Below, one piece after another: positions 4,153 to 59,250 of a DNA stretch of 64,000 nt; position 1 is the stretch's first letter, and the number at the start of each line of letters is the position of its first letter. The notes beneath the pieces were generated by a model. The model ran no database searches. It worked only from the letters and a program-made list of their open reading frames with translations, and was not told the DNA's origin. Source of the DNA: Opitutales bacterium (GTDB taxonomy: Bacteria; Verrucomicrobiota; Verrucomicrobiia; Opitutales; PNEW01); contig CBDANS010000007.1 of assembly GCA_965197745.1 (NCBI GenBank), positions 768,001 through 832,000 of the forward strand. Direction: 5' to 3'. The position numbers were made by a program, and so were the translations under genes.

Positions 4153-5430
4153 CCTGCAATTACATTGCTGAAAAAGCTGTTTCTGCTCCTGCCCTGGATC
4201 CTCGCGGGAATCTTTATGCTTATCAGCATTCTTAACCCGGCTTACGAGAGATATTTTTTACCCAATACTCAAGACGCTTTTCGAAGAATAGATTACAATA
4301 ATTTATTACCCTCAACGGTAGATGTGGTGCGAACAACAGAGAAAGTTTCACTCTTAACCGGTGTGATGGCGCTCTCTGTTGCCTTGTTCTATCTCGTGCG
4401 TCGAAGACGGGATATACGTCTTATACTGAATATCATCTTCATCAACAGCCTTGTCTTAGGCATTGTCGGTACGGTGTTTAACCTGATGGGAACTGACCGT
4501 ATTCTTGGAATGTTTGATCCCGTCAATACCATGTTTTTTTCCAGTTTTCGCTACCACAACCACTGGGCTGGGTTTACTCTCCTTTGCCTTGGTGTGGGGC
4601 TGGCGCTTTACAGCTACTATCACAGTAAAGACGATGCCAGGAAAAGTCGGTCTCGTACATCCACTTTTTTTCTCGGGATGTTATTTTTTTTAGCGTTGAG
4701 TATCCCTTTATCGGGGGGGCGCACGGGCATGCTTCTGCTAATTGTCATGGGGGTATTATTTTTCTTCAGGCTTTGGTGGAGTGAAATTCAAAAGCGCCGA
4801 AGGGGATATCACAGAAGATACTTATTAACTAAGTTAGTCGCAGTCGTCACTGTCGTCATGGTCGTCACCTGGCTGATTTATCAACTCGGTGAGGAGATGA
4901 TCCAAGTTCGCTGGGAAAAATCGATTCATCAGTATGAAGATATATTAAGGGGTGAGGCAATGGAAATGCGGGTATATTCCACACGTGACACACAGGGTAT
5001 GGCGTTGGACAAACCCTGGTGGGGTTGGGGTTTAGGTTCTTTTACCTACGCTTTTAAACTTTATGCGGGACCTGAGTTCTACCGTGGAAAACACTATTTA
5101 CGCATGGAGTTCGCCCACCAGGACTGGCTGCAGTATTGGGCCGAATTGGGGACTGTGGGTTTTGCCGCCTTGTTAGCTCTCCCCGTATTCATTGTCATTA
5201 TTGTTTTGAGACGAGGAAAGTCCAACCCGGTTACGGGCTGGCTAGCGGTCGGTTGCGGCCTGATCCTCGTAATGGCTTGTTTTGAATTCCCCCTGAGCAA
5301 CCCGGCGATTATCGCCCTGTTTTTTATACTCGGAACTCTCGCCGCGAAGTATGCGTTATTAGAAAGTCAAATGTCAAAGGTCGAAGGTCGAAGGCGGGAT
5401 GGGGAAATGGGTGAAAGCGATAAAGGGTGA
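4153..5430 (+). pseudogene. O-antigen ligase family (Wzy_C) membrane protein, 5'-truncated by IS3
   Basis: Multi-TM; SFRYHNHWAG, SGGRTG, KPWWGWGLGSF and AHQDWLQYWAELG motifs. The ORF start at 4066 lies inside the IS, so the native start is missing. Confidence 0.75.
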
Positions 5431-5563
5431 ATGCGGATTGATGCAGGATACAGGATGCAAGATGCAGGGTAATATAACCGCTTATATACCTATTCGCTTC
5501 AACGCATGTACGCATGCTCTCGTTTACACATATACCTTAGACTTTAGACCTTCGACTTTCGAC
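5365..5563. repeat. nested inverted tandem-array element (7-mer GTCRAAR / 8-mer / 7-mer GATGCAG / 8-mer' / YTTYGAC)
   Basis: gtcaaat gtcaaag gtcgaag gtcgaag ... gatgcag gatacag gatgcaa gatgcag ... ctttagac cttcgac tttcgac. Confidence 0.85.
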
Positions 5564-5964: not shown

Positions 5965-6970
5965 ATTTACAGGAAGATCGGGGAGGACGGGAAGAAAATT
6001 ATAGCCACAAAAAGCACAAAATGAGAGAGGGAATTGGCTGACAGATGTCGTCACGTTAAAGCAAGATGTACAATATATTTAACCACGAATGACACGGATA
6101 TCTAATATATATAAAGGAGTTGAATAGGGGATTAATGAGGAGTCTAAAGTCGAATGTCTAATGTCGAAAGTCGGAAAACGAAGAATTTTTACAGGAAGAT
6201 CCAGCCGTCGCCAAGGCTATGGCCTGGCAGGCGGGAAGAACGGGAAGAAAATAATAGCCACATTTCAGGAAGAGAATAAACCACGAATGGACGCGAATTA
6301 GCGCGGATTACCACGGATATTTTATATAGAGAAGAGTTAATTAGCCACCAACCGTCGTCCCGCGGTGGCGGGACTATGGTCGGCAAAGCAAGATGCACTA
6401 CCAGAGCACAGCGAGATTTTCTAATGACACAAGATACCTTCAGGTGAAAGTTAGTGCTTAATCGCAAAAGCTCAGCAGTAGCTGAGCTTCGGCTGTTCCT
6501 TACCGTTTTTTTAATTTTGATTTAAAAAACCGCGTAAAGGATTATCCGTATCAGTTCCGCTCGCGTGCGCGTGCGGGATGACTTTGCGATGAAGCATCGT
6601 ATTTCACCTTTTCTTAACTTCATGTATTTAAATCCGCGACATCTGCGTAATCCGCGTCTCCGCGACATCCGCGTAATCTGCGGTCAGATATTTCCGTCTT
6701 TCCCGCTTGCCACGCCATAGCTCACTAGAGCGACGGTGGGATCTTCCTGTAAAATCCCTCTCTTTTTTTGTGTCTCTTGCCTGCCGGTCATAGTCACGGC
6801 GTCAGTTGTTCATATCCGCGAAAGTATAAAAAAGGAATAATGATGTGTTATAAAGTGGAATCTCGGACGCAATCGGCCGTCGTCCTTACAAATACAGGAC
6901 TATGGCCGACAGGCACCATGCGTCCCTCCAGAAAAAGGAATATCGACTTTTGACATTAGACCTTCGACTT
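5965..6970. repeat. composite intergenic repeat region (7-, 9- and 10-mer arrays, hairpin micro-inserts, cloverleaf element, REP)
   Basis: caggaagat/cgggaag, agccacaaaaagcacaaaa and ccacgaat/cacggat arrays on the left, with their reverse complements on the right. Confidence 0.8.
6439..6609. repeat. ~175-bp structured element (MITE- or ncRNA-like), copy A
   Basis: ~35-bp imperfect terminal inverted repeat TTCAGGTGAAA..TGCTTAATCGCAAAAG; near-identical to 7988-8162 and 10623-10797. Confidence 0.8.
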
Positions 6971-10797: not shown

Positions 10798-11025
10798 TTA
10801 AACCCAAAATTAATATCCGCGATATTCGCGTCATCCGCGGTAAGATCTTGCTGTTTATTTTTGTGCCTCTTGCCTGCCGGTCATAGTCCCGCCACTGGGG
10901 GACGACGGTTGGTGCCTTTGAAAGATGTCGTCCCGGTGTCGCGGGACTCGGTAGTGGCTATCTTAAAAAAACCACAGCAGTGAATGTTACTGAAATAAAA
11001 GTTAAAGAATGGGCTATTTTAACTT

Positions 11026-12581: not shown

Positions 12582-12605
12582 AACTCAACAATGTTGAGTT
12601 ATGCG

Positions 12606-12749
12606 GTCGAAGGTCAAATGTCAAAGGTCAAAAGTGAAAAAATCTAAAGATTTTTTGTTTTAGGTGTAAGATGTTAAATTTTAAGTAAGATTTTTCATCA
12701 AAGCATAATTAGTAAATGTTCCGACCTTCGACTTTCGACTCTTTGACCT
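12606..12749. repeat. inverted 7-mer array pair, family A, enclosing a family-B array
   Basis: gtcgaag gtcaaat gtcaaag gtcaaaa ... taggtgtaagatgttaa ... ccgaccttcgactttcgactctttgacc. Confidence 0.8.
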
Positions 12750-13717: not shown

Positions 13718-13790
13718 GGATTCACTAGTCAAAAAGTCAAAAGGTCAAAAAGTCAAAAAATAAAAATCCTTGGATTTTTAGTGTTATGTT

Positions 13791-14138
13791 TTAGGTTAGA
13801 GATTGAATTAATGCATGAAGTTTTCCTGATATCATTTTTGTTTCAGTAATTAATGCATTAGCTTCTTTAGATGGTATAAGGCCAATATTTTTAGCGATAA
13901 ATAATTGAGTTCGAACTTCAGCAGCTGAACCTTTAGCATAACCAAGAAATAATTTAAACTCATGTATCGAGTTTCTCTCAGCTCCCTCTGCAATATTTGA
14001 AGGTATCGAAACAGCTGCTCGCGATATTTGATCTCTAAATCCGTAATTACGTGAGTCTTTCAATTCGGAATATATACTTATAACTAAAGCACACGCTCTT
14101 TGCCAAACATCCAGTTCTTCGAATGATTGATAGGCCAT
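13791..14138 (-). CDS. four helix bundle protein (23S rRNA IVS protein family)
   Basis: SFEELDVWQRA...DQISRAAVSIPSNIAEGAER...FLGYAKGSAAEVRTQL. Confidence 0.93.
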   Translation of the reverse strand: MAYQSFEELDVWQRACALVISIYSELKDSRNYGFRDQISRAAVSIPSNIAEGAERNSIHEFKLFLGYAKGSAAEVRTQLFIAKNIGLIPSKEANALITETKMISGKLHALIQSLT

Positions 14139-14247
14139 GACTTAAGAGTTAAAGTGTATTTCTACGCGATTATCGGAAGAGATAACTAGATGATATAAAT
14201 CGACAGTTAATACCTGACGATTAATAGTGAAAAATAATATTATTTCT

Positions 14248-14280
14248 TCGACTTAACACCTAACACCTAAAACTTAACAC
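14248..14280. repeat. family-B 7-mer array flanking the four-helix-bundle gene
   Basis: acttaac acctaac acctaaa acttaac; inverted partner at 13773-13798. Confidence 0.8.
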
Positions 14281-14288
14281 AGCAATAT

Positions 14289-15872
14289 ATGTCTGAAATG
14301 TTAGACACATCTTCTCGAGGTCTTCACATTGTGGATTGGTTGTGCATTGCCCTCTACGCGGCTGTGGTTTTGGGAGTCGGGTGGATTTATTCGCGCAGGC
14401 ATTCGGACACGGGGAGTTATTTTGTTGGCAGCGGGAAGATGAATTCCTTTCTCATCGGTATTTCCATATTAGCAACGCTCTTAAGTTCCGCCTCTTTTTT
14501 AATGATTCCCGGTGAAATGATTAAAAATGGGCCGGTCATATTATGCTATCTCTTCGCGATACCTATCGCCTATGTCATCGTCGGTTACGTCTTGATCCCC
14601 GCCCTCATGCGTTACCGTGTGATCAGCGCTTACGAGATATTGGAAAAGAAGATGGGGGTAAAAATACGCCTGCTCGGTGCCAGCCTGTTTATCATGCTCA
14701 GGCTTACCTGGATGTCAGTCATTGTTTACTTCGCGGCAGAAGCGACAGTGGTAATCATCGGACTCGACCGATCAATGGTTCCCTGGGTTGTTCTGGTAAT
14801 TGGGATTGTCTCCGTAACTTATACCACCATGGGGGGATTACAGGCTGTAGTTATAACCGATCTTCTTCAATTCTGCATCCTATTTGGCGGTGCGATATTG
14901 ACCCTAACCATTATCAGTTTTCGTCTCGACGGTCTTCACTGGATTCCTACGGAGTGGTCACCTAATTGGGACGTACAACCATTCTTCAGCTTCGATCCAA
15001 CGGTGCGCGTGACGGTGGTTGGATCGATAATCTCATTTTTAATCTGGTTAATATGTATGGGAGGATCTGATCAGACGGTGATCCAAAGATATATGTGTAC
15101 CGAGGACGCCGCTACTGCTCGACGAGCCTACTTTCGAAATTCCCTCACAAATATGATAACCATTCCATTAATTGCTCTCGTGGGATTTGGGGTATTGGGA
15201 TTTTATATGCAGTACCAGGAGTATATTCCTGAAGGGGAGACCATTCAGTCCTATGCTGACAGACTCTTTCCACTATTTATATCAGAACATTTACCGATCG
15301 GTGTAGCCGGCCTCGTCGTTTCAGCATTATTCGCAGCCGGAATGTCGAGCATCGACTCAGGAATAAATTCAATAACAGCAGTCACGATGACAGACTTTTT
15401 AGATCGCTTTGGTCTTAAATCAAAAAGCGAGCGACAGCATTTGAGAATGGCCAGGTTCATAGCCATTGGCATCGGTGTCTTTGTCATGCTTGTGAGTATT
15501 CAAATGCATCGAGTGCCCGGCAACTTCGTAGAAATACCCCAGAAAACAATTAATCTTTTTACGGTGCCCATGTTCTGCCTGTTTTTCTTTGCTTTGTTTG
15601 TTCCGTTCGCCACTCCATTTGGCGTTGCCCTGGGTGCTCTCTATGGATGGGTGGCTGCGCTCCTCGTCGCCTACTGGGACATTTTCACTGGCCTCGACAG
15701 ACTAAGTTTCCAATTGATCATGTTTACGGCCCTCGTAGTAGACCTCTCTATCGGATGTCTATTCAGTCTCATTCCCATTAAGCATAACCCCCCCCCTGTG
15801 ATCGCCGTCTGGACGGTTATGGCACTTTCCCCGCTAATCGCGGGGATACTCACGCTCTTTTTCAGAGCGTGA
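14289..15872 (+). CDS. sodium:solute symporter (SSS)
   Basis: YFVGSG, YTTMGGLQAVVITD, DQTVIQRY and AAGMSSIDSGINS motifs; ~13 TM. Confidence 0.93.
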   Translation: MSEMLDTSSRGLHIVDWLCIALYAAVVLGVGWIYSRRHSDTGSYFVGSGKMNSFLIGISILATLLSSASFLMIPGEMIKNGPVILCYLFAIPIAYVIVGYVLIPALMRYRVISAYEILEKKMGVKIRLLGASLFIMLRLTWMSVIVYFAAEATVVIIGLDRSMVPWVVLVIGIVSVTYTTMGGLQAVVITDLLQFCILFGGAILTLTIISFRLDGLHWIPTEWSPNWDVQPFFSFDPTVRVTVVGSIISFLIWLICMGGSDQTVIQRYMCTEDAATARRAYFRNSLTNMITIPLIALVGFGVLGFYMQYQEYIPEGETIQSYADRLFPLFISEHLPIGVAGLVVSALFAAGMSSIDSGINSITAVTMTDFLDRFGLKSKSERQHLRMARFIAIGIGVFVMLVSIQMHRVPGNFVEIPQKTINLFTVPMFCLFFFALFVPFATPFGVALGALYGWVAALLVAYWDIFTGLDRLSFQLIMFTALVVDLSIGCLFSLIPIKHNPPPVIAVWTVMALSPLIAGILTLFFRA

Positions 15873-15877
15873 GTATT

Positions 15878-16079
15878 GTCAAAAAGTCAAGAAGATATGC
15901 GGTAAGGCGTAAATGCGATAAAGCGTGAATGCGGATTAATACCTGAGACATAATGCAGGATGCGAGGAGACCCTAGAGATTACCCCTTATTCGCATAAAC
16001 ACATATACGCGTATGAGGATGACGAGCTACGCTCTCGGTACGCACATACCCTTCGACATTTGACTTTCGACTTTCGACT
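15878..16079. repeat. nested inverted array element (family A, 8-mer, GATGCAG)
   Basis: gtcaaaaagtcaag...gcggtaaggcgtaaatgcgataaagcgtgaat...ccttcgacatttgactttcgactttcgac. Confidence 0.8.
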
Positions 16080-16093
16080 CCTTTAATAAATCC

Positions 16094-16972
16094 ATGATTA
16101 AAAGTAAAAACGGCTATCCAACTGCTGAAGAACTGATAGAAAAAGTGCGTGAGGTTGGCTATTGTCTGATTGAAGACATAATTCCTGAAGATAAGATTGA
16201 GCCGATCAAAAAAGAAATTTCTGACGCGGCTCACGCTAATTGCAGTGATTATGCGTCCGATAATATTACCCATATGTCAGGGACTATTAATCATACCCAG
16301 ATTTTCGCGGAATATGTCGCACACCCTCGTATCATGGCGTTGGTGGACACATTTTTTGGCCCCTATGCGCGTGTCTCCTCGACCACAACGACGATTAATG
16401 AACCGGGGAACAAGCGAGGTATGTGGCACTCCGATTGGCCGTTTAACCAGAGAAACGCGGGGCACATCCCGGTTCCCTATCCCGACATCATGCTTCACAT
16501 CACTTCTATCTGGATGCTGTCGGCATTCAGTAAAGAGAATGGAGGGACCTTAATTCGACCCGGTAGCCATAAACTCGATTATAACCCGAGCGTCGATTAT
16601 CCGGTAAATAAAGCGAAAACAGATGATAAGGAAGCGATGGCAAAAGGGTGGACGGAGGTTGCCTGTGATCCATTAGATGATGAAATAAATGCTACGGGAC
16701 CGGCGGGCAGTGTGCTCTTCTTTGACAGTCGCTTATGGCATGCCACCGCGCCCAACACTTCCAGTGATCCAAGGGTAGCGTTGATCGTGCGTTATGCTCC
16801 CTGGTGGATAAATCTTAAATCCTGGCGGCCCGGTTCGATTGATCGGAAAATAATTTCTGAAGAACCCGGCATATTTGAAAACGTGCTCGCGCCACTTCCC
16901 ATCGATGTCTATAATCGGCTACCCGAAGTCACCAAACCCCTTTTCCGGCATTGGGTAGAGGAAAACGCGTAG
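16094..16972 (+). CDS. phytanoyl-CoA dioxygenase family (Fe/2OG)
   Basis: WHSD, GGTLIRPGSH, GSVLFFDSRLWH and PR motifs. Confidence 0.9.
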   Translation: MIKSKNGYPTAEELIEKVREVGYCLIEDIIPEDKIEPIKKEISDAAHANCSDYASDNITHMSGTINHTQIFAEYVAHPRIMALVDTFFGPYARVSSTTTTINEPGNKRGMWHSDWPFNQRNAGHIPVPYPDIMLHITSIWMLSAFSKENGGTLIRPGSHKLDYNPSVDYPVNKAKTDDKEAMAKGWTEVACDPLDDEINATGPAGSVLFFDSRLWHATAPNTSSDPRVALIVRYAPWWINLKSWRPGSIDRKIISEEPGIFENVLAPLPIDVYNRLPEVTKPLFRHWVEENA

Positions 16973-16979
16973 CGTTTTC

Positions 16980-17191
16980 GTCGAAAGTCGAAGGTCAAAG
17001 GTCGAAAGCGAAAATCGTTATTCTGGAGGGACGCGCTCTGTCGCGTCCGCTTAAAAATCAGGTGTATTTATTTTTCGATATTATAAATGATGATTATAGC
17101 CACAACGGCGTGTGGCCCTCCAATTTATTTTCTTCGCTAAAAATTGTATCAGCATCATTCTACCTTTGACATTAGACCTTAGACTTTCGAC
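16980..17191. repeat. family-A inverted arrays enclosing an inverted REP pair
   Basis: gtcgaaagtcgaaggtcaaaggtcgaaag; REP ggagggacgcgctctgtcgcgtccg (17025) and inverted REP (~17098-17121); tttgacattagaccttagactttcgac. Confidence 0.8.
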
Positions 17192-17201
17192 AAAAGAACC
17201 C

Positions 17202-18194
17202 ATGGGTTCTTTTCAAGATAAGCCGATTGGACGCAGTGGATTGAAGATGAGCGCGATTGCGCTGGGGGCGGGAACTTACGGACGAGAGATCGACGAAGAA
17301 GCATCCTGGCGGTTACTCGACTATGCGACAGAAAAAGGAATTACATTTCACGATAACGCGGAAATGTATGGTGGGGGTAACACCTATGAAAAACGTAAAG
17401 CGGATTACGGTACCACCGATGTGAGGGAGGCATCGACTGAAATGTACTCGGGCGAGAAAATTCTCTCTCGATGGATGAAAAATCGGGGTTGCCGGGATGA
17501 AATTATCCTCTGCACAAAAGTCAGCACCGGGAACAGCGCGGAAAATATTAAAAAACAGATGGCGGCCAGCCTCGAGCGTCTGGAAGTCGACTGTGTGGAC
17601 GTTTACATGTTGCATTCCCCCGATGACAACGTGCCTATAGAAGAAACAATGGATGCCCTCAACGAGGAAGTTGAGGCCGGACATACCAGGGTTCTTGGGT
17701 GCAGTAATTTTTCGGGCGCGCAATTGCGTGATGCGCTCGCGGTCAGCGCGAAAAAGGGGTACGCCCGTTTTGAAATCTCTGAACCCCGCTATAATCTCGG
17801 CGATCGAGAAGCCGAAACAGATCATTTTCCCATTTGCCGAGAGGAAGAGATAACGGTTATGCCCTACAGCCCGCTGGGGGCGGGATTTCTCACCGGGAAG
17901 TACAGCCCCGACCGTTCAAAGTTTCCCAAGGGTGCGCGCTTTGACCTCTCACCCGGTCATGCCGACATTTACTTTAACGATCATAATTTTCGGGTGGTCG
18001 AACACCTGCGTAAAAAAGCCGAGGAGATGGGACTTACGATGGTGCGTCTCGCCATGGCCTGGGCCATGACGCATCCCGACGTCACCGCAACTCTCATAGG
18101 CGCCCGAACAACCGATCACATCGACAACGCCCTCCTCGCCGCCGAAATGGGACTGGATCCAGGATTACGTGAAGAAATGAACGAATTTTCATAA
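17202..18194 (+). CDS. aldo/keto reductase
   Basis: IGRSGLKMS, DNAEMYG, SLERLE.DCVDVYMLH and PYSPLGAGFLTGKY motifs; start moved to ATG 17202, past the repeat. Confidence 0.92.
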   Translation: MGSFQDKPIGRSGLKMSAIALGAGTYGREIDEEASWRLLDYATEKGITFHDNAEMYGGGNTYEKRKADYGTTDVREASTEMYSGEKILSRWMKNRGCRDEIILCTKVSTGNSAENIKKQMAASLERLEVDCVDVYMLHSPDDNVPIEETMDALNEEVEAGHTRVLGCSNFSGAQLRDALAVSAKKGYARFEISEPRYNLGDREAETDHFPICREEEITVMPYSPLGAGFLTGKYSPDRSKFPKGARFDLSPGHADIYFNDHNFRVVEHLRKKAEEMGLTMVRLAMAWAMTHPDVTATLIGARTTDHIDNALLAAEMGLDPGLREEMNEFS

Positions 18195-18202
18195 AAATTC
18201 GT

Positions 18203-18369
18203 TGTGTTAGGTTTTAGGTGTTAAGTGTTAGGTTGAAGGGTGTGTACATGGGCCTCCATTTATTTATTAATCAAACTATTCCCGCGTTCCCGCATTTACG
18301 CGTTTTCGCATCATCGCATATCCCCATCTCCCATTACTTTTGACTTTTTGACCTTTTGACCTTTTGACT
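18203..18369. repeat. mixed array element (family-B left arm, 8-mer and family-A right arm)
   Basis: gtgttaggttttaggtgttaagtgttagg ... ttcccgcgttcccgcatttacgcg ... ttttgactttttgaccttttgaccttttgac. Confidence 0.75.
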
Positions 18370-18376
18370 ATGACCC

Positions 18377-19501
18377 ATGGGGTCATATTCCGATAAGCTG
18401 ATATTGATTATCGATGGTCACTTGGATATGGGGTTTAATGCGCTTTTTAATCGGCGTGATCTTACCCAACCGGTTCAGGAATTACGTGCTCGCGAAGACT
18501 CGCTTGAGAACCCGTTAGGTCCCTATGAAAACGATCCTGGAACGGTTACGGTTTCACTCCCGGAAATGCGGAGGGGTCATATTGGTATTATGCTGTCAAC
18601 TATTATGGCGCGTGTCCAAGTGCCCTGGCCCGGAAGACCCAGGACCCACAACGCGGTGCGCACTCAAGCCACAGCCTATGCGCGCGGGCAATCCCATCTC
18701 GCTTATTACCAGGCTTTGGAAAGGGAAGGAGAGACAACCTGGATTAAAACACTCGAGGACTTGAATTCGTGTGTTGCGGCCTGGGAAAACCCCACACCGG
18801 AAACTCCTGTGGGTCTTATCCTCTCCATGGAAAGCGCCGATCCCATCCTTGGTCCCGACCAGGTAGGGGAGTGGTGGGATGCCGGATTGCGTTCTGTCGG
18901 CATTACTCATTTCGGGGCCAATTCTTATGGACACGGAACCGGTACGCCGGGGGGACTATACCCCACAGCATACCCGCTGATGGATGCATTTGCAGATACA
19001 AAAATGATTATTGATCTCACCCATGCCGCTGATATCACATTCTGGCAGATCCTAGATTATTGGGATGGACCGATACATGCCAGCCATTGCAACTGTCGCG
19101 CACTCGTACCCGGTCAACGCCATCTCAGTGACGAAATGATAAAGGCGGTCTGCGAACGCGATGGCGTAATTGGCGCTGTATTTGCCGAGCCCATGCTCAA
19201 TCCTCAGTGGGATTGGGATGATCCGAGAACACATTATACTAATGCGTCGCGATCGATGAAGGCGGTAATTGAACATGTCGATCACATCTGTCAGCTCGTC
19301 GGTAACACGGATCACGTAGCTATTGGCACTGATCTCGATGGCGGATTTGGACGTGAACTGGCCCCAACCGACATGAATACTATCTACGACCTGCAAATAT
19401 TTTTAAATCTGCTGCGTGAAAGGGGATACAGCGAAGAGGACGTTACAAAAATTGCTCATGGTAATTTGCTACGCCTCTTCCGCCATGCATGGAGTAAATA
19501 A
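18377..19501 (+). CDS. membrane dipeptidase family (peptidase M19)
   Basis: DGHLD, SMESAD, IDLTH, ASHCN and HVAIGTDLDG motifs. Confidence 0.9.
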   Translation: MGSYSDKLILIIDGHLDMGFNALFNRRDLTQPVQELRAREDSLENPLGPYENDPGTVTVSLPEMRRGHIGIMLSTIMARVQVPWPGRPRTHNAVRTQATAYARGQSHLAYYQALEREGETTWIKTLEDLNSCVAAWENPTPETPVGLILSMESADPILGPDQVGEWWDAGLRSVGITHFGANSYGHGTGTPGGLYPTAYPLMDAFADTKMIIDLTHAADITFWQILDYWDGPIHASHCNCRALVPGQRHLSDEMIKAVCERDGVIGAVFAEPMLNPQWDWDDPRTHYTNASRSMKAVIEHVDHICQLVGNTDHVAIGTDLDGGFGRELAPTDMNTIYDLQIFLNLLRERGYSEEDVTKIAHGNLLRLFRHAWSK

Positions 19502-19503
19502 TC

Positions 19504-20589
19504 ATGGCTGATAAACCCATACTCATTGTAGACAGCCATCTCGACCTGGCTTTTAACGCTATTCAGATTAATCGGGATATTACACAACCGGCAGCTGTTG
19601 TTCGCACCCATGATCATCAATCCCATCTTTACCGATGGGGAAGCGCTACCGTTACTTTTCCTGAACTGAGAAAAGGAAAAGTAGGGATCGTGTTCGGAAC
19701 GGTTATGTCTCGAATCGATCCTACCGATTGGCTGGGGCGCACCGGGGGGATGTATTCGCAAGCGCAATGTTACGGAGTAGGTCACGGGCATTACTCTTTT
19801 TACAAGGCGATGGAAAGGGAAGGTATACTTAAATTTATCCATAATGCCGAAGATCTAGATGCGATGGTCACGGCCTGGCAAAATCCCGCTGCCGATACCC
19901 CTTTTGGTTTAGTTCTCGCGATGGAAAGCGCGGATCCTATCTTGAACCCGGACCATGTCTCCGAATGGTACGACCGTGGTTTGCGCATCGTCAGTATTTC
20001 TCATTACGGCACCAGTACCTATGCCCACGGCACCGACACGGAAGGCGGTCTGTTACCCAAGGGTAAGCCTCTTCTCGATGCCTTGAAAGCGAGCGGTATT
20101 ATTGTCGATCTGACACATACAACAGACCAGGGGTTTTGGGAAATACTCGATTATTATGATGGGCCGGTTGCCGCTTCTCATCACAATTGCAGGGCCCTCG
20201 TTCCGGGCCAGCGACAGTTAACCGATGATATGATCAAAGCCATTGTCGAACGCAATGGCGTGATTGGAGCCGCATTTGATGTATGGATGCTCGATCCCGA
20301 TTGGATAAGGGGTGTTCGTGGGTGTGATCAAACGACGAAAGCCACGCTTGAAACGGTTGTCGATCACATAGAGCACATTGTCCAACTTGTGGGCAGTACC
20401 AATCACTGTGGGATTGGCACCGACCTCGATGGGGGTTATGGACAGGAGCAATCTCCCCGCGATCTCAACACTATTGCTGACCTCCAAAATCTTCCCGCAA
20501 TTTTTAAACAGCGTGGTTACAAAGAAGATGACATTGAAAAGTTCATGTCAGGGAATTGGATTCGTTTTTTAAAAGAAGTCTGGGGTTGA
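19504..20589 (+). CDS. membrane dipeptidase family (peptidase M19), tandem paralog
   Basis: DSHLD, AMESAD, VDLTH, ASHHN and GIGTDLDG motifs. Confidence 0.9.
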   Translation: MADKPILIVDSHLDLAFNAIQINRDITQPAAVVRTHDHQSHLYRWGSATVTFPELRKGKVGIVFGTVMSRIDPTDWLGRTGGMYSQAQCYGVGHGHYSFYKAMEREGILKFIHNAEDLDAMVTAWQNPAADTPFGLVLAMESADPILNPDHVSEWYDRGLRIVSISHYGTSTYAHGTDTEGGLLPKGKPLLDALKASGIIVDLTHTTDQGFWEILDYYDGPVAASHHNCRALVPGQRQLTDDMIKAIVERNGVIGAAFDVWMLDPDWIRGVRGCDQTTKATLETVVDHIEHIVQLVGSTNHCGIGTDLDGGYGQEQSPRDLNTIADLQNLPAIFKQRGYKEDDIEKFMSGNWIRFLKEVWG

Positions 20590-20726: not shown

Positions 20727-21506
20727 ATGCGCTTGAAAAATAAAGTTGCGTTAATAACTGGGGCTTCCCGGGGGTTAGGGAAGGCTATGGCCCTTTGCTT
20801 TGCCAAAGAGGGAGCGGCTGTTGCCGTTAACTATGTCAAAAGCCGTGAACAGGCTGAACTGATCTGCGAGGGCATTGTCGAATCGGGGGGCAAAGCCATG
20901 CCCGTGCAGGCCGATGTGTCCAATGTTGAGGAAGTAAAGCAGATGGTGCAAATCGTAGAGGAGGCATATCATAACATTGATGTCCTAGTAAACAACGCCG
21001 GGCTCTTTATCCCCATCAATATAATGGAAGACCCGCCGTCTGTTATAGATCGTTTATACGAAGTAAATATTAAGGGGATTATTCACACCGTACAGGCCGT
21101 AGTCGGTAAGATGAAAGAGAGGAAATACGGAAGAATTCTTAATCTCAGTTCTATCGCAGGACTGGGTACTGATTTTGCCGGGACCAGTGGGTACGCCGCG
21201 ACTAAAGCGGCGGTAATATCACTTACTAAACGAATGGCACTGGATTTAGGGGAGTATGGTATAACCGTTAACTCAATTGCACCGGGATTTATTAAAACAG
21301 ATATGGCACTACGTGACGGCGTGACGGAAGTAAGTGCTGAAAATTTAAAAGCCGTCGCAAAGAAAGCGATGTTGAATCGAGTGGGGGAACCCGAAGATAT
21401 CGCCTATCCCGCGTTATTTCTCGTATCCGACGAGGCCAGTTTTATAACCGGTCAAATTCTCACCGTCGATGGTGGGAGAAAAGATTTTCTCACTTTTTCA
21501 GCTTAA
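20727..21506 (+). CDS. short-chain dehydrogenase/reductase (FabG-like)
   Basis: TGASRGLG, NNAG, YAATK, APGFIKT and VDGG motifs. Confidence 0.92.
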   Translation: MRLKNKVALITGASRGLGKAMALCFAKEGAAVAVNYVKSREQAELICEGIVESGGKAMPVQADVSNVEEVKQMVQIVEEAYHNIDVLVNNAGLFIPINIMEDPPSVIDRLYEVNIKGIIHTVQAVVGKMKERKYGRILNLSSIAGLGTDFAGTSGYAATKAAVISLTKRMALDLGEYGITVNSIAPGFIKTDMALRDGVTEVSAENLKAVAKKAMLNRVGEPEDIAYPALFLVSDEASFITGQILTVDGGRKDFLTFSA

Positions 21507-21513
21507 ATCCGAA

Positions 21514-21696
21514 AAGTCGAAAGTCTAAGGTCAAAGGTCGAAAGCGGAAGGAGGGTTGAGGAAATGTGTATACGCGGTAAAGCGTGAATGTGAATTGATA
21601 CAGTATAATCTAACCGCTTATCCCCATTATCGCTTTTACGCGTCTACGCATTATCGCATATACCTTTTGACTTTTTGACCTTTTGACTTTTTGACT
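21514..21696. repeat. nested inverted array element (family A, 8-mer)
   Basis: agtcgaaagtctaaggtcaaaggtcgaaag ... ttttgactttttgaccttttgactttttgac; right half closely matches 36299-36359. Confidence 0.85.
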
Positions 21697-21706
21697 TAAA
21701 TCCTCA

Positions 21707-23116
21707 ATGGAAAGTAAGGGGATTAAAGGTACGGAAATTCTGATTGTTGAAGACGAACCGCTCTTGCGAAAGCGGCTGGTCGCCTTTCTCGAAAGCGAGG
21801 GGGCCGAAGTCACAGCGACGGAAAATCTGGAGGGGGCCAGCAACTGCTTGAGCAGTTTACATTTTGATTTCGCTTTAATTGATATCCATCTTCCCGATGG
21901 TCTTGGGATCGACCTTTTGCGTGAGAAAAAATTTTCCGCGAATACCAATATTGTCATCATGACAGCTGAAGGTGGTGTAGAAAGTGCGGTTGAAGCGATG
22001 CGCCTTGGGGCCTCTGATTATTTGAGAAAGCCATTTGATCTTGAAGAGCTCCCGATTATTTTTAAACGCTGTGCACTTGCTCATCATACCGCTCGTCTTC
22101 AGGAACATCGCCGTAAAGAAGATTCAAAAGCTGAAGATCGGTTCTTTTTCGGTGAAGCGCTTACGGGGATCAAAAATCAACTGGAAAAGATCTTAGAAGC
22201 GGATCGGCGATTAGGTGAAGGATTGCCACCCGTCCTTATTGAGGGCGATACAGGGACGGGGAAAACGGCTATTGCCCGATGGCTGCATAACCTCGGGTCT
22301 CGAGCAAATCAACCGCTCGTTGAAGTTAACGGTTCAACGCTTCCAGACAACCTCGCTGAATCGGAACTTTTCGGTCACGAACGTGGAGCCTTTACGGATG
22401 CCCGGAGTGCCCGTATCGGACTCTTTGAAGCTGCTGACGGAGGCACTCTGTTTCTCGACGAATTGCCCAGCCTTAGCTCCGCTGTTCAGGTCAAGATATT
22501 GACGGCGATTGAAGACCGTAAAATCCGCCGAGTGGGAGGTAATAAAGAAGTCCCGGTTGATGTTCGCCTGATTACGGCTACCAATCAAAATTTACAGCAA
22601 CTTGTCACTGACGGTGTTTTCCGCGAAGATCTCTACCACCGGCTTGACCTCATGCGCATAAATATTCCCCCTTTACGTGATCGTGGGCCTGACATCTTAA
22701 ATTTGGCGGAGCACTTGCTTGAAGATCTTTGCCGTCGCTACCGGGTAAAAAAAGTCAGTATTTCTGAATCGGGAAGGCGAAAACTTATAGCTTATCCCTG
22801 GCCAGGAAACGTGCGCGAACTGGCACACGAGTTGGAACGTTCCATTGTCATGTTGGAGGGGGACACTTTGGATTTCGATAAATTGGATATTACACATGGG
22901 AGGAGTGTGACTATTGATGAGTCACCGCATTCGTCCAATGACTGGTTTAATAATAATTTCGTGTTTCCTGATGGTGAATTCAAGCTTGAGGAAGCCATCA
23001 CGAGAATTATTCATCAAGCCCTCAAGCAAACCGATAACAATGTCTCGGCGGCGGCTCGCCTTCTTGGTGTTCCCCGGGATTATGTCCGTTATCGCTTGTC
23101 AGGCCAAAAGAAATAA
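21707..23116 (+). CDS. sigma54-dependent response regulator (NtrC/AtoC family)
   Basis: Receiver domain (VEDE, DIHLPD, KP), AAA+ domain (GDTGTGK, ESELFGHERGAFTDA, LFLDE, WPGNVREL) and Fis-type HTH. Confidence 0.95.
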   Translation: MESKGIKGTEILIVEDEPLLRKRLVAFLESEGAEVTATENLEGASNCLSSLHFDFALIDIHLPDGLGIDLLREKKFSANTNIVIMTAEGGVESAVEAMRLGASDYLRKPFDLEELPIIFKRCALAHHTARLQEHRRKEDSKAEDRFFFGEALTGIKNQLEKILEADRRLGEGLPPVLIEGDTGTGKTAIARWLHNLGSRANQPLVEVNGSTLPDNLAESELFGHERGAFTDARSARIGLFEAADGGTLFLDELPSLSSAVQVKILTAIEDRKIRRVGGNKEVPVDVRLITATNQNLQQLVTDGVFREDLYHRLDLMRINIPPLRDRGPDILNLAEHLLEDLCRRYRVKKVSISESGRRKLIAYPWPGNVRELAHELERSIVMLEGDTLDFDKLDITHGRSVTIDESPHSSNDWFNNNFVFPDGEFKLEEAITRIIHQALKQTDNNVSAAARLLGVPRDYVRYRLSGQKK

Positions 23117-28866: not shown

Positions 28867-29310
28867 GGACGCAACGGAGTGCGTCCCTCCAGAAAATAAA
28901 TGGAGAGATGAAGACACGGGCGATGACGAAGATTGTCGATTTACATTATAGAATATAGCTTCTTCTTCGTCCTTCCAGTTATTTCACCCCGGAGGGGTGA
29001 CACAATCACAGCTCGCAGCGTAAGCTTTGGGAATAATTTACGAATAATTTAAGCCCCAGCGGGGCGACACAAACCGGCTTATCTGTCAATTTGTATCGCC
29101 CCTCCGGGGCTCTGAAAATGGGTTGCACATCTCAAACCCATTGCTTACGCAATGGGCTAATTATGTTACGCCCCTCCGGGGCTTCGACGCTAAGATAAAC
29201 GAACTTAAAAGCGGACGCGACGACGCGCGTCCCTCCAGAAAATGAATGACATTGCGTGCTCTCCTATTCTGTTCTTTTCCGGAGGGCCACGCGTTGTCGT
29301 GGCCGTAACC
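28867..29310. repeat. REP cluster with IS200/RAYT-type palindromic repeats
   Basis: GGAG-REPs at ~28867, 29211 and 29281; agccccagcggggcgac / cgcccctccggggct inverted units at 28985-29185. Confidence 0.7.
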
Positions 29311-35202: not shown

Positions 35203-35325
35203 ACGAAGATTATGGCTAATTAATACACTATGAATCTTCGTCTGCCTCCTCGTCTTCGTCCTCTTATACCCTAATTACTTAATAATAAGAGTTATTAAAT
35301 CTAAAACTGTTTATCAAACTTCCCA

Positions 35326-36223: not shown

Positions 36224-36360
36224 AGTCAAAAAGTCAAAAGGTCAAAATGTCAAAAAGTTGGTTGATGCAAGATGCATGATCCAGGATTCAGGATAATCTA
36301 ACCGCTTATCTCATTTATCGCTTTTACGCGTCTACGCATGATCTCATATACCTTTTGACC
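36224..36360. repeat. nested inverted array element (family A, GATGCAG, 8-mer)
   Basis: agtcaaaaagtcaaaaggtcaaaatgtcaaaaag ... gatgcaagatgcatgatccagg ... taaccgcttatc...ccttttgacc. Confidence 0.8.
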
Positions 36361-36367
36361 TATTAAT

Positions 36368-37102
36368 TTAATTATTAGTCCTGATAAGCCTGACGTTTTG
36401 CATTAGAAACCAGTTATAGAATTGATGAGGATGTATAAATGCCGGGGGCACGGCACTGCGCTGTATATAGCCATCCTTTACGGATAATCCTCCCCATTTT
36501 TCAATTATATCCTCGCGCACACGATAAGATCGATCGCGCCATTCACCTATGGGAATACAGCGTTCAAGACGTCCTGATTCAGTCTTTTTTGCTCTGACCA
36601 CAATCTCCGTTTCCAGTGGTTTAACCCTACGGGTATGAGCATTTTGCTTCCATAGCTTCTTCTCTACTTTTCCCACGGAAACTACTTCTTTAACTACATA
36701 TAGACCAATTATAGCGTATATCAACCTGTGCGCACACGCTTCAATTGGTCGCAAGCCCGCATAAAAAACAATAATATCATCTGATTTCATTCGGGTGATA
36801 ACAGCGCCGCGCCGAGCTCCATTGTCGCCATAGGTCAGTTCATTGAAATCCGGATCCAAATGCATTTTTTTATTCAGGAGACCGGTGGAGAATTTAAGAT
36901 TCCTCCTTAATCCCGTTTTATATTTATGACAGAACCCGTTCAAAGCTGGCAATGTCTCGGAATAATAGCGCTGTAGATGCTTATGGCTGTGTTTATCTTC
37001 TGGAATCGGAATATAAACAAATTCTCTCGAGTGCAGATCGAGTGGAGCATTCCACTTACCATATGAGCTATCAATACCAACTCTTATGAGAAGCGCTATC
37101 AT
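36368..37102 (-). CDS. Nmad3-like (nucleotide modification associated domain 3) protein
   Basis: RVGIDS..G..NAP...FVYIPIPE...HLDPDF..LTYGD...D.IVFYAGL pattern, recognised by eye. Confidence 0.65.
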   Translation of the reverse strand: MIALLIRVGIDSSYGKWNAPLDLHSREFVYIPIPEDKHSHKHLQRYYSETLPALNGFCHKYKTGLRRNLKFSTGLLNKKMHLDPDFNELTYGDNGARRGAVITRMKSDDIIVFYAGLRPIEACAHRLIYAIIGLYVVKEVVSVGKVEKKLWKQNAHTRRVKPLETEIVVRAKKTESGRLERCIPIGEWRDRSYRVREDIIEKWGGLSVKDGYIQRSAVPPAFIHPHQFYNWFLMQNVRLIRTNN

Positions 37103-37161
37103 TATTTGTCAAAAGTCTAATGTCGAAAGTCTAATGTCGACTCTAATAGAACTGACGAGCA

Positions 37162-37560
37162 TTAGGAATCTACATCGGCTCTTGAATTCGACATATCTTG
37201 TTTAATATGGCGCATAAGCGCGGCAATACCTTTTGAGATATTTCTACTAGCTTCTCTTAAGTCTACTGCGTCCTTTTCTAATAAATATTTAAGGTCTTCC
37301 GCAATATAGAGCATATTCCTCAATTCCCCGCAGGACCCCTTTGCGATACTAAGATAATGATAGAACTCAGCGTCTCCTTTTCTTTCATAACCTTCCGAAA
37401 TATTATTCATTACAGACACACTAGATCTTTGAATCTGATTTTTAAAGCCAAAGTCTTTTGCTGCTGGCGTTGTATCACCAAACACAGTATAAATGGTCGC
37501 GACTAAGGTTCTTGCGTCTTGCCAGATTCTCAGATCTTCAAAAGATTTTACTGAGTTCAT
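37162..37560 (-). CDS. four helix bundle protein (23S rRNA IVS protein family)
   Basis: SFEDLRIWQDAR...NQIQRSSVSVMNNISEGYER...YLSIAKGSCGELRNML. Confidence 0.93.
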   Translation of the reverse strand: MNSVKSFEDLRIWQDARTLVATIYTVFGDTTPAAKDFGFKNQIQRSSVSVMNNISEGYERKGDAEFYHYLSIAKGSCGELRNMLYIAEDLKYLLEKDAVDLREASRNISKGIAALMRHIKQDMSNSRADVDS

Positions 37561-37648
37561 ATTTATCTTAAAGGTTGATGTTGGAAGAATGAGATCTTTA
37601 TAAAATTTAATTCGGTATTAAACACATGACACTTAATATTAATTATTT

Positions 37649-37718
37649 TACCTTCGACTTTCGACCTTTGACTAATCACCTTTGACTTTTCGACCTTCGA
37701 CTTTCGGCTCTCACCTTT
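37649..37718. repeat. family-A 7-mer array flanking the four-helix-bundle gene
   Basis: cttcgac tttcgac ctttgac ... ttttgac ttttcgac cttcgac tttcggc; inverted partner gtcaaaa gtctaat gtcgaaa gtctaat gtcgac at 37107-37143. Confidence 0.85.
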
Positions 37719-37723
37719 CACAG

Positions 37724-38749
37724 ATGCATGCGGCAAAATCAGCCCCAACGCTCTCTAGAAAGAGGACTTATTTTCTCATTCGATTGTCAACATTTGCCAT
37801 TCTTCTCTTTGCTCTAATAATTTATATCGTTATGATGCCCAAAAGCTCTTATTCAGGTCCTTTTCTGCCACTCTCTGAAGATGAGAAAATTACACAGCGT
37901 CAGCTCAATAAACACATTGGCGTTCTGGCGAAAGAAATCGGAGAGAGAAACTTCTGGCATTACCTGGAGTTGACAGCGTCAGCGAATTATATCGACGAAG
38001 CATTTAAGGATTCAGGCTACGAAGTAGATCGGCAGGAATTTAAGATTGATGGTGTAACCGTTGCTAATCTTGTAGCAGAATTAAGAGGAACTTCCTTACC
38101 CGATGAAATAATTGTTGTCGGCGCTCACTACGACTCAGTTACAGGTTGTCCCGGTGCTAACGATAACGCTTCAGGTGTTGCCGGTCTGATCGAAACGTCG
38201 CGTCTGCTGGTAAATAATGAACTGTCCCGGACAATCCGCTTCGTCGCTTTCGTTAATGAAGAACCCCCATTTTTTCAGACTGCCAATATGGGGAGTCGCG
38301 TCTACGCAGCTCGCGCCCAACAACGCGGAGAAAATATAATCGCCATGCTTTCACTTGAGACCATCGGCTATTATTCAGAGGAGGAAGGCAGTCAGCGTTA
38401 TCCCTTTCCATTCAGTTTCTTTTACCCGGATGTTGCCAATTTCATCGGCTTTGTTGGAAATTTATCATCGCGCCGTCTGGTTCATCAGGCCATCGCTTCA
38501 TTTCGTGAACATACAAAGTTTCCCTCCGAAGGGACAGCTGCTCCGGGATGGATGACGGGGGTGGGGTGGTCAGACCATTGGTCTTTTTGGAAAGAAGGGT
38601 ACCCGGCGATAATGATCACTGATTCCGCGCTCTTCCGTTACAATTTTTACCACACCCCGGAGGATACACCGGACAAGATTGACACGGCGCGGATGGCGCG
38701 CGTGGTGAATGGGGTATCGCGTATAATCTCCGACCTTGCCACAAACTGA
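37724..38749 (+). CDS. M28 family peptidase
   Basis: VGAHYDS, GANDNASG, FVNEEP, LETIG, SDH and YH motifs; N-terminal TM. Confidence 0.92.
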   Translation: MHAAKSAPTLSRKRTYFLIRLSTFAILLFALIIYIVMMPKSSYSGPFLPLSEDEKITQRQLNKHIGVLAKEIGERNFWHYLELTASANYIDEAFKDSGYEVDRQEFKIDGVTVANLVAELRGTSLPDEIIVVGAHYDSVTGCPGANDNASGVAGLIETSRLLVNNELSRTIRFVAFVNEEPPFFQTANMGSRVYAARAQQRGENIIAMLSLETIGYYSEEEGSQRYPFPFSFFYPDVANFIGFVGNLSSRRLVHQAIASFREHTKFPSEGTAAPGWMTGVGWSDHWSFWKEGYPAIMITDSALFRYNFYHTPEDTPDKIDTARMARVVNGVSRIISDLATN

Positions 38750-48014: not shown

Positions 48015-48345
48015 ACGGCCACGACGACGCGTAGCCCTCCAGAATGAGAACAAATGGGAGGGCCTCGCGTTGTCGTGGCCGTGGTTTAAATATTTAAAAC
48101 AAGAGAATGAATAATTAATTATTACAGAAAGAGGATAGTTTGGAGGGATGCGTATAGCCTGTCGCCCATAGTCCCGCGGATGCGGGACGACGGCTGGTCG
48201 TGTCCGCTTAGGTGCATGAATTTACTGCAGGTAGCTAATTACTGGATAAAAATTATACTCATTGTCCTTTCATTTTGTGCTTCTTGTGCCTCTTGTGGCT
48301 ATCTTAATCGAGGATGAAGACGAAGAGGCAGACGAAGACGAAGAT
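48015..48345. repeat. REP-containing composite repeat
   Basis: Inverted REP pair (48015, 48056), REP with micro-insert (48142-48208), ttttgtgcttcttgtgcctcttgtggct 10-mers and gacgaa hexamers; related to 55742-55960 and 58868-59250. Confidence 0.8.
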
Positions 48346-54610: not shown

Positions 54611-54688
54611 AGTCAAAGGTCGAAGGTCAAAAGTCAAAAGCAAATTGTGAAATTCCGACCTTCTACTTTAGACCTTGGACATTAGACT
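54611..54688. repeat. minimal family-A inverted array pair between convergent genes
   Basis: gtcaaaggtcgaaggtcaaaagtcaaaag ... ccgaccttctactttagaccttggacattagac. Confidence 0.8.
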
Positions 54689-58867: not shown

Positions 58868-59250
58868 GGAGGGCCACGCGTCGTCGTGGCCGTGGTTGTA
58901 ATATTTAAAAAGATTAATAAAATGGAGGGACGCGCAATGCCTGTCGGCCATAGCCCCGCAGTTGTGGGGTGACGGCTGATCGCGTCCGCTTAGGAGCATG
59001 ATTATAGGATAGGAGATATGGAAGATGTCACCCTGCTGTTGCAGGGTTCGGAAGTGGCTATCAAATCGTGGATGAAGACGAAGAAACAGACGAAGACGAA
59101 GATTATTATTGATATCATTCCCATCCAATCATCCAGGCATCCATCCTTCCACTTTTGTGAATTTTGTGCCTTTGAAAGATCTCGCTACACTCGGTAGTGG
59201 CTATTCTAATCGAAGACGAAGACGAAGACGAGGAGGCAGACGAAGATACT
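58868..59250. repeat. REP-containing composite repeat with three micro-inserts
   Basis: REP at 58868, REP with insert at 58924-58989, inserts at 59021-59054 and 59175-59197, gacgaa hexamer runs. Confidence 0.8.

Follow-up and report, generated by a model that had tools for sequence, protein, structure and literature searches.

Inverted heptamer arrays around a four-helix-bundle gene of an Opitutales bacterium: a probable hairpin cassette resembling the intervening sequences of 23S rRNA

Intervening sequences (IVSs) of the 23S rRNA that contain an open reading frame (ORF) are described for Leptospira, Coxiella burnetii, and Brucella (PMC4990558). The Coxiella IVS comprises 428 nt, possesses a 28-bp stem of terminal inverted repeats, is excised by RNase III, and encodes the protein S23p; two or three tandem GACAGAT heptamers, variable in number, precede the S23p ORF, and S23p of Xanthomonas is cited as a homopentameric toroid in the same source (PMC4990558). 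A comparable arrangement was present in a stretch of 64,000 nt of an Opitutales bacterium (contig CBDANS010000007.1, positions 768,001 to 832,000), which is named the window in the following. Here, a gene on the minus strand for a four-helix-bundle protein (37162 to 37560) is enclosed by inverted heptamer arrays, and arm, gene, and arm together (37107 to 37706, minus strand) occupy the entire spacer that separates an Nmad3 gene from an M28 peptidase gene. This locus is probably an IVS-like hairpin cassette, with a gene of the PF05635 family enclosed by inverted arms of about five heptamer units each. Both elements possess an ORF of the same S23p or 23S_rRNA_IVP family in the loop of a terminal-inverted-repeat stem, have a size of about 430 to 600 nt, contain tandem heptamers of variable number beside the ORF, as described for Coxiella, and are suspected to be selfish or mobile although a mobility enzyme is not known. 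In contrast to the IVSs, which are located in helix 25 or 45 of the 23S rRNA, the cassette of the window is positioned between protein-coding genes, and Rfam models identified no rRNA in the window. The cassette also differs by its arms, which are long tandem arrays of typically five units each, and by many copies and many repeat dialects in one genome, which are accompanied by a swarm of gene-less derivatives.

Intergenic heptamers have also been described elsewhere. Convergent pairs of GGGAATC heptamers, 70 of them in X. campestris, and heptamers of Nostoc were reported as possible quadruplex formers, heptamer repeats of Calothrix were described as well (PMC4692102), and TAACTGA repeats occur in Beggiatoaceae, Cyanobacteria, and Bacteroidetes (PMC4679880). 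Like the arrays of the window, these repeats are intergenic, are composed of few units, differ in length between close relatives, and are distributed patchily across phyla, and those of Xanthomonas are often convergent pairs able to form stem-loops. No associated gene is named in these two papers, whereas the arrays described here are tied clade by clade to a gene family; the terms "S23" and "intervening" occur zero times in PMC4692102, and "23S" zero times in PMC4679880. PF05635 genes have been described inside cas loci (PMC3936711). A link between PF05635 genes outside of rRNA and flanking heptamer arrays was not found in full-text searches, the coverage of which leaves subscription journals mostly outside.

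The left arm of the cassette, downstream of the gene (37107 to 37141, plus strand), is composed of the five GTC-anchored units GTCAAAA GTCTAAT GTCGAAA GTCTAAT GTCGAC and was scored by Tandem Repeats Finder (TRF) as an array of period 14 with 2.4 copies and 95% matches. The right arm, upstream of the gene (37650 to 37706, minus strand), contains the letters CTTCGAC TTTCGAC CTTTGAC ... CTTTGAC TTTTCGAC CTTCGAC TTTCGG, which are two blocks of GTCRAAR units on the minus strand with TAATCAC between them. Since the right side is the reverse complement of the unit family on the left side, the two arrays are inverted. The letters on both sides agree with the first-pass annotation, made from the sequence of the window, which had described the gene as flanked by heptamers of a GTC family. 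An AT-rich untranslated stretch between the start codon and the upstream arm (37561 to 37649, minus strand), 79% identical to that of a related cassette in genome G002, probably contains one or more promoters. A promoter scan of positions 36900 to 37900 was not above chance (four promoter-like sites versus 3.1 expected), and a terminator scan of the same region yielded one terminator-like site versus 0.6 expected. The Nmad3 gene (nucleotide modification associated domain 3, E = 1.6e-23; 36368 to 37102, minus strand) is on the same strand and downstream of the cassette, and the right-hand neighbor, the M28 peptidase gene, starts with an ATG at 37726 on the plus strand.

The product of the enclosed gene, a protein of 132 aa, matched PF05635 (23S_rRNA_IVP; E = 1.4e-32, 112.5 bits, cut-off 33.8) and TIGR02436 ("four helix bundle protein"; E = 1.9e-30, 105.3 bits, cut-off 24). 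The nearest solved relative is XCC0516 of Xanthomonas (PDB 2gsc; E = 8.6e-13) with five chains in the entry, and by likeness to this structure, the window protein may form a homopentameric ring. The motif RxxxSxxxNxxE is present. Residues Q35, R38, S42, and E72 were invariant across 22 aligned members, and N46 and E49 were conserved in at least 90% of these. The family motif is written GxxRxxxSxxxNxxE in PMC3936711, and the first motif position here is a Q and not a G. In proteins of this size, about 120 aa, the searches that gave the PF05635 and TIGR02436 matches revealed neither an enzymatic domain nor a motif of known nucleases, recombinases, or polymerases, and no transposase domain, and the window gene had no match in 50,697 phage records. 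Compared to its copy in G002, the window gene displayed a dN/dS ratio of 0.18 at a dS of 0.59, so the protein is under purifying selection.

Two genomes of the same family as this genome (G000), namely G001 and G002, allowed a view of the fate of the cassette. The Nmad3 and M28 genes are side by side in both of them. A copy of the cassette in G002, 82% identical over window positions 37108 to 37673, was located 19 kb from the syntenic spacer, behind the ortholog of the window ORF at 17112 to 18194. Homology begins at 37108, with the first arm unit, and stops inside the right arm; outside of the arms, the flanks in G000 and G002 are unrelated, with 33% identity on the left side and an unalignable right side. 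The spacer behind the ORF at 17112 to 18194 thus harbors a GTCGAAA-armed gene cassette in G002 versus a gene-less element with unlike arms in this genome (18204 to 18368; GTGTTAG left and CTTTTGAC right), which showed no hairpin signal (z = −1.1). Arm, gene, and arm are therefore inherited and relocated as one unit. The syntenic Nmad3/M28 spacer of G002 contained a different gene-less composite. [quoted passage not shown] Internal deletion of the gene leaves a gene-less arm remnant, and this route was directly observed here, so at least some of the gene-less arrays are decayed cassettes. Between G000 and G002, the arms differed almost exclusively at unit positions 4 and 7, as read from the alignment. 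Synteny of the Nmad3 gene in G001 and G002 did not depend on the presence of a cassette, and the gene is, therefore, probably unrelated to it.

The cassette is found in spacers between genes and in many cases fills them, and the length of its arms varies between populations. One contig of the DNA run X4 skips positions 37667 to 37702 (36 nt) of the right arm, and the other three of four public DNA runs agree with the window at this site. Among the contigs of these four runs, which would drop rare variants, none showed presence or absence of the gene as a variant; a single contig spans the gene in two of the four runs. Of the two kinds of polymorphism proposed as a check in the first-pass annotation, the variation in array length was found, and a gene-less contig was not. 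Contigs of the runs X1 and X4 break at 37359 to 37392, a stretch of 34 bases inside the gene that recurs as a separate short contig with a word depth of 25 and 20, compared to 9 to 19 for the adjoining long contigs, which suggests that this stretch is common to another copy or a strain variant.

The cassette is one of several in this genome, which is 92% complete. There were 14 matches to PF05635 in 12 loci, and in 10 of these 12 loci, inverted tandem arrays with a unit of their own enclosed the gene, as judged by eye. The arm units were ATGCGTAA-like octamers, GTCGAAA, GTCAAAAR plus GTGTTAG, GTGAACA plus CAGGGTT, GATGCAG, GAATTAK, and GATTKYC. TRF identified 329 arrays of period 7 and 202 of period 8 in G000. 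All arrays of periods 6, 7, and 8 added up to 746, among them 45 inverted pairs not more than 1,200 bases apart. When the gap of an inverted pair was between 427 and 577 bases, a PF05635 gene was enclosed in 7 of 10 cases (gaps of 427 to 536 bases), while 31 of the 45 pairs had gaps of 6 to 266 bases and no PF05635 gene inside. The ten most frequent heptamer families in G000 matched the arms of PF05635 loci, again by eye. Arrays of at least three GTCNAA units spaced by 7 or 8 bases occurred 62 times in the 4.45-Mb genome versus zero times in each of three shuffled genomes, and 28 of these 62 arrays were clustered in 85 kb around the window (C7:737,744-822,687), which is 1.9% of the genome. The same array pair with a gap of 560 bases and the same ORF of 131 aa appeared on opposite strands at G000:C4:212155-212780 and G000:C7:1928-2553; this duplication of the end of C4 and the start of C7 is probably an assembly overlap, and some arrays were therefore counted twice.

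In a tree of 42 PF05635 genes from G000, G001, and G002, each well-supported clade carried one arm family, and sister clades carried similar units, for instance, GTCGAAA next to GTCAAAAG. Random pairing of paralogs with repeat families was accordingly not seen. Five GTGAACA-armed genes across the three genomes were recent paralogs with the same arms at different loci. When dialect labels were placed on a larger tree of 139 rows, with the count of dialect changes using the 67 rows with named classes, 11 changes were needed (the possible minimum being 9) compared to 24 to 30 in 200 shuffles of the labels. This tree test indicates linkage and not recognition because relatives share labels by descent, and shared descent explains most of the pairing of clades and repeats. 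Every protein clade has kept a unit sequence of its own.

The same kind of locus was found outside of the family. A search of named genomes with the single window protein, which samples only its own wide clade, yielded 80 loci with 47 to 74% identity, 77 of them with usable flanks. Inverted arms with z of at least 5 were present in 57 of these 77 loci, 42 of the 77 also passed a filter for a tandem period, and 19 of 29 loci from the order had arms with z of at least 5. Arms were present in three of four plasmid records inspected, from Nostoc sp. ATCC 53789 (NZ_CP046706.1), Nostoc punctiforme (NC_010631.1), and Riemerella (NZ_CP081938.1). Within the clade of the window protein, units of the form GTC-N-AA-R or GTC-T-N-AA-R were found in Akkermansiaceae, Luteolibacter, Haloferula, Kiritimatiellales, Pontiellaceae, Neomarinimicrobiota, and a metagenome-assembled genome (MAG) of the Phycisphaeraceae, and the GTC-N-AA-R arms of relatives spanned named MAGs of the Verrucomicrobiota, Planctomycetota, and Neomarinimicrobiota. 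Units of nested sub-clades were GTAAAAG/GTGGGAAG, GACAACR (in Bacteroidales), or of the AAGTT type. When 160 seven-base units of 37 GTC-class cassettes, taken from several orders and phyla, were compared, A5 was present in 93% and A6 in 96% of them, position 4 was free, and position 7 was A or G; positions 1 to 3 were fixed by the search pattern in this count, which replaced a weight matrix from TRF arrays within two mismatches of GTCGAAA because that matrix had mixed several families. Such an invariant core is telling since pairing of the arms alone would not require one. Among 82 arm runs, 42 had five units, 16 four, 12 three, 5 six, and 7 had nine or more. In 87 of 99 cassettes (from the loci L001 to L136), the arm on the 5' side was rich in purines and contained little C (12%), and because the arms are inverted, both strands possess a purine-rich 5' arm.

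Abundance of the arrays and presence of the gene were compared across genomes by using a pattern of three GTCNAAN units (GTCNAAN x3). The pattern matched 70 times in G000, 81 times in G001, 160 times in G002, and once in G003. Within the order, 35 of the 37 further genomes had no match and the remaining two had 1 and 5, and a control with the reversed pattern matched at most once in each genome of the order. Five genomes from outside with a GTC-armed relative contained 622, 16, 1, 0, and 0 matches; the 622 matches were those of the Phycisphaeraceae MAG, whose relative is 55% identical and has GTCGAAG arms. Of five genomes with differently armed relatives, four had no match, and one had 3, compared to 8 control matches. 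G042 and G043 possess a gene of the cognate clade and had zero strict matches, and their own arms, which mix heptamers and octamers, would fail the pattern, too. From the phylum, 400 genomes were sampled blindly, and 13 of these were array-rich (13 to 77 matches, control matches not more than 5). A relative of the window protein with an E value of not more than 1e-10 was encoded by 10 of these 13 genomes, compared to 163 of the 400 overall. The three exceptions were G379 with a PF05635 gene and GTCGAAA arms, G096 with an N-terminal fragment only, and G439 with a fragment at a contig end. It was thus not seen in this small sample of related genomes that array-rich genomes often lack the gene, since most of them contain a relative of the window protein and the other three a PF05635 match or a fragment.

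Partner enzymes that might go along with the arrays had also been suggested. No reverse transcriptase was identified in this genome (no RVT_1 match). One Y1 HUH gene (Y1_Tnp match at C6:163380-163706, on another contig than the window cassette) and two Prim-Pol genes were present, none of them near the cassettes examined.

How the cassette may work can be outlined from these results. The inverted flanks of the cassette aligned with z = 5.5 when 300-base flanks were used and z = 3.6 with 320-base flanks, and the arms are predicted to pair with each other in minimum-energy and in centroid RNA folds. In a transcript, the arms would pair into a long stem that RNase III would cut, as in the ORF-bearing IVS of the 23S rRNA. 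By this analogy, the chances are about even that the stem in the transcript can be cut by RNase III, and such a cut would account for the tolerance of the cassette within operons. Selection may keep the core of the unit, GTC..AA in this case, since something encoded in the cassette reads it. That a cassette-encoded factor reads the core is a tentative proposal, and the protein, with a five-subunit ring as its solved relative, is the sole candidate for this factor. The TRAP ring reads spaced triplets. In a similar way, a five-subunit ring might possibly read the five tandem heptamers of its own arm, one unit per subunit, which is a speculative model. Of the explanations at hand, a protein that reads its own repeats would best account for the clade-specific dialects, the invariant core, and the arms of five units; this inference has at least one clear exception.

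This exception and several other results weigh against the interpretation just outlined. The PF05635 gene of G379 has GTCGAAA arms, albeit it belongs to another deep subfamily; its product is 36 to 48% identical to those of the GAATTAK and GATTKYC clades and had no blastp match to the window protein. G389 contains 73 GTCNAAN matches, yet the three genes that were read, out of five PF05635 genes in this genome, have other arms, twice of the GTTCTTG type and once of the GGTCATT type. Two of the 12 loci in G000 have a one-sided hexamer run only and no two-sided arms. The proteins are not basic, with a near-neutral charge (pI 5.1 to 7.9 for 10 G000 proteins). Between G000 and G002, base identity of the arms was 60 to 71%, which is no higher than the 71% of third codon positions. 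No direct repeat that could be a target-site duplication flanks the cassette at 37107 to 37706, and related genomes are non-independent samples. Concerning a function as RNA, G-U wobble positions in the arms numbered 195 on the sense versus 233 on the antisense strand, and the arms-only hairpin was more stable on the sense strand in 17 and on the antisense strand in 24 of 42 cassettes, which was not significant (Wilcoxon p = 0.07) and lends no support to a sense-strand RNA stem; a duplex fold of the whole flanks preferred antisense in 32 of the 42, though its pairing extended far beyond the arms. Finally, the hexamer family TCTTCG/CGAAGA is represented by 72 TRF arrays in G000 and by many hairpins with a pyrimidine-rich 5' arm, which is the opposite polarity of most heptamer arms (window sites 48316 to 48344, 59074 to 59102, 59211 to 59246, and 35238 to 35263). 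The pattern matched 79 times in G000, 31 times in G001, and 109 times in G002, with three mismatches allowed since the strict pattern TCTTCGNCTTCGNCTTCG was too strict. A gene with TCTTCG arms exists only in G002 (G002:C2:1132087) and not in G000 or G001 despite the abundant arrays; the closest G000 protein is 46% identical to its product, and there is no G000 ortholog. The suggestion in the first-pass annotation that two paralogs with two dialects reflect a specificity code is, consequently, supported in part only, by the strongly non-random pairing of clades and repeats, much of which shared descent explains, while the GTCGAAA arms of a distant subfamily and the TCTTCG arrays without a cognate gene speak against it.

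Instead, the heptamer hairpins could be independent repeats driven by the host, such as slippage arrays or elements like repetitive extragenic palindromes (REPs) or MITEs (miniature inverted-repeat transposable elements), with the genes as mere passengers in the loops and no relation between protein and repeat. We regard this as unlikely, albeit it would agree with the excess of gene-less arrays over genes (746 arrays and 45 inverted pairs versus 12 genes), with the one Y1 HUH transposase gene, with the layering of arms of several families, which nested insertion would produce, and with the two exceptions of TCTTCG and G379 just mentioned. Orthologous spacers, moreover, differ in their element among G000, G001, and G002, which indicates that these spacers are hot spots. 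The literature also contains such repeats: convergent GGGAATC pairs of Xanthomonas are described without a gene (PMC4692102), and among the long simple repeats of bacteria, heptamers are reported to be the most common type (cited in PMC4679880). Passenger genes would not explain, however, that the homology of the relocated copy takes in the arms and stops at their outer ends, or that recent paralogs, such as the five GTGAACA-armed genes, keep their arms elsewhere. The dialect tracks the clade and not the host, with at least 10 dialects in this one genome and the same pair of dialect and clade in different phyla, and random landing would favor the most abundant repeat, TCTTCG, which has no gene here. 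Alternatively, each protein may recognize its own dialect and copy or spread the arrays in trans, and the gene-less arrays would be MITE-like, non-autonomous dependants. The linkage of dialect and clade, the match of the ten most frequent families to PF05635 arms, the regional clustering of one dialect, the presence of a cognate-clade gene in most array-rich genomes, and the agreement of the commonest arm length of five units with the five chains of the solved relative would all fit. Spreading in trans is nevertheless quite improbable: the protein of about 120 aa is near-neutral and contains no known nuclease, recombinase, or polymerase domain, the sole directly observed origin of a gene-less form was a deletion and not copying, arrays persist without a cognate gene, and G042 and G043 possess the gene without strict matches, with the limit of their mixed arms already given.

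Elements of the MITE type and of REPs with their associated tyrosine transposases (RAYTs) are, like the cassettes, short and inverted-ended, occur in many copies with family-specific ends, and yield gene-less from gene-bearing forms by deletion. Inverted ends, the 45 inverted pairs, the deletion remnant in G001, and about 15 copies of one composite are such MITE-like features here. The cassettes differ in that they encode no transposase-like protein, have tandem arrays rather than unique terminal repeats as ends, and, compared to MITEs, show no regular target duplication. Avd forms a pentameric four-helix-bundle barrel and functions together with nucleic acid. PF05635 is reportedly cited in a review of diversity-generating retroelements (PMC10053308). 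We know of no function of PF05635, a large family with solved structures, outside of these retroelements. The window protein, which belongs to the same Pfam family as Avd, might then be a stranded Avd and the repeats remnants of template and variable repeats. This is extremely improbable because no reverse transcriptase was identified in the genome, which is 92% complete, and the 12 loci have short tandem inverted arrays instead of pairs of template and variable repeats of 100 to 150 bp; the proteins are not basic, and the phage records gave no match.

The interpretation as an IVS-like cassette with clade-specific arms combines an orphan protein family and orphan bacterial repeats into one object, with at least 10 dialects in one genome. 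Conclusions can be drawn from a relocated copy, a remnant of a deletion, and a polymorphism in arm length in this genome and its relatives, and a 30-year-old question, the nature of the IVS elements and the role of their ORF, becomes testable, with the paralogs as built-in specificity controls. If the protein indeed reads its repeats, the heptamer dialects would be a natural, evolvable recognition code between protein and nucleic acid, and this code would determine the hairpin arrays that a given protein may protect, process, or help to multiply. This would also provide a function for thousands of PF05635 genes and for the over-represented heptamer repeats of bacteria. Heptamer-armed cassettes are also relevant to annotation, for they occur within operons and interrupt assemblies.

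Gene-less hairpins that agree with the cassettes in arm units and in the order of the layers occupy many spacers nearby. GTCRAAR occurred 105 times in the window compared to a mean of 39.8 (standard deviation 6.4, largest value 60) in 100 dinucleotide-preserving shuffles, a 2.6-fold excess. All 13 gene-less places listed at first contained at least two units of the GTC family, with those at 15878 and 46581 being weak and that at 36224 consisting of GTCAAAAR octamers. Most gene-less elements were convergent pairs (GTCRAAR ... YTTYGAC) around 12 to 270 bases and not lone arrays, and several were layered, with an outer GTCRAAR arm, a middle arm of octamers, a GATGCAG array, and a common core. Six of nine gene-less elements were predicted to fold as RNA better than shuffled sequences, with z from −3.0 to −6.5. 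Between 14 and 23 kb, the elements reach from the stop codon of one gene to a point about 10 bases ahead of the next start, which fills the spacers of same-strand genes nearly exactly, and the genes there are ordinary enzymes and transporters.

Another PF05635 paralog in the window (13791 to 14138, minus strand) is part of a cassette at 13727 to 14281 (minus strand) with an outer GTCAAAAR arm (13727 to 13759), a small hairpin, and an inner GTGTTAG-type arm at about 13781 to 13801, and with the right arms CTTCGAC TTAACAC CTAACAC CTAAAAC TTAACAC at 14245 to 14281; this layered design recurs at G002:C1:1354276. The gene-less hairpin at 12605 to 12747 has the same layers (GTCRAAR, small hairpin, GTGTTAG type) without a gene (RNA z = −4.5). 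The composite hairpin at 5365 to 5563 consists of a GTCRAAR arm, an RTGCGNNN-like octamer arm, a GATGCAG array, a core, and the reverse arms, should fold as RNA (z = −3.5) and DNA (z = −3.2), and belongs to the family of about 15 copies in the genome, which was obtained as 21 nhmmer hits with the element at 21513 to 21697 as query. The latter composite hairpin fills the spacer between the genes at 20727 to 21506 and 21707 to 23116 (RNA z = −6.5). The composite at 15878 to 16078 occupies the spacer between the same-strand genes at 14289 to 15872 and 16094 to 16972 and folded no better than shuffles (z = −0.3). Hairpins with GTCRAAR arms were located at 16980 to 17191 (RNA z = −4.9) and, with a loop of 12 nt only, at 54611 to 54687 (RNA z = −3.0). 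Between an SDR gene and Nmad3, the element at 36224 to 36359 combines a GTCAAAAR octamer arm with a GATGCAG array. Its octamer array matched many places in G001 and G002; the 4-kb query as a whole yielded at least 55 and at least 54 matches, respectively, with 40 of 187 and 182 candidates scored.

Outside of the window, a PF05635 cassette with GATTKYC-type arms at G000:C7:619723-620356 follows directly behind a tRNA-Ser(cga) gene, and 25 bases around the 3' end of this tRNA gene are repeated beyond the cassette (at 619795 and 620332), which resembles a scar of integration or a long duplication of the target. Tandem families with a TCCGCG/CGCG core and periods of 8 to 9 (for example, ATCCGCGTC) that are not part of the GTC family occurred in the window at 6632 to 6682, 10813 to 10839, and 18279 to 18304. 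Two paralogs of the M19 membrane dipeptidase adjoin each other at 18377 to 20589 (plus strand) without a hairpin element between them, unlike most nearby spacers. The only Rfam family in the window was the small RNA Acido-Lenti-1 at 29137 to 29183 (plus strand), with 43.8 bits at a gathering score of 37.

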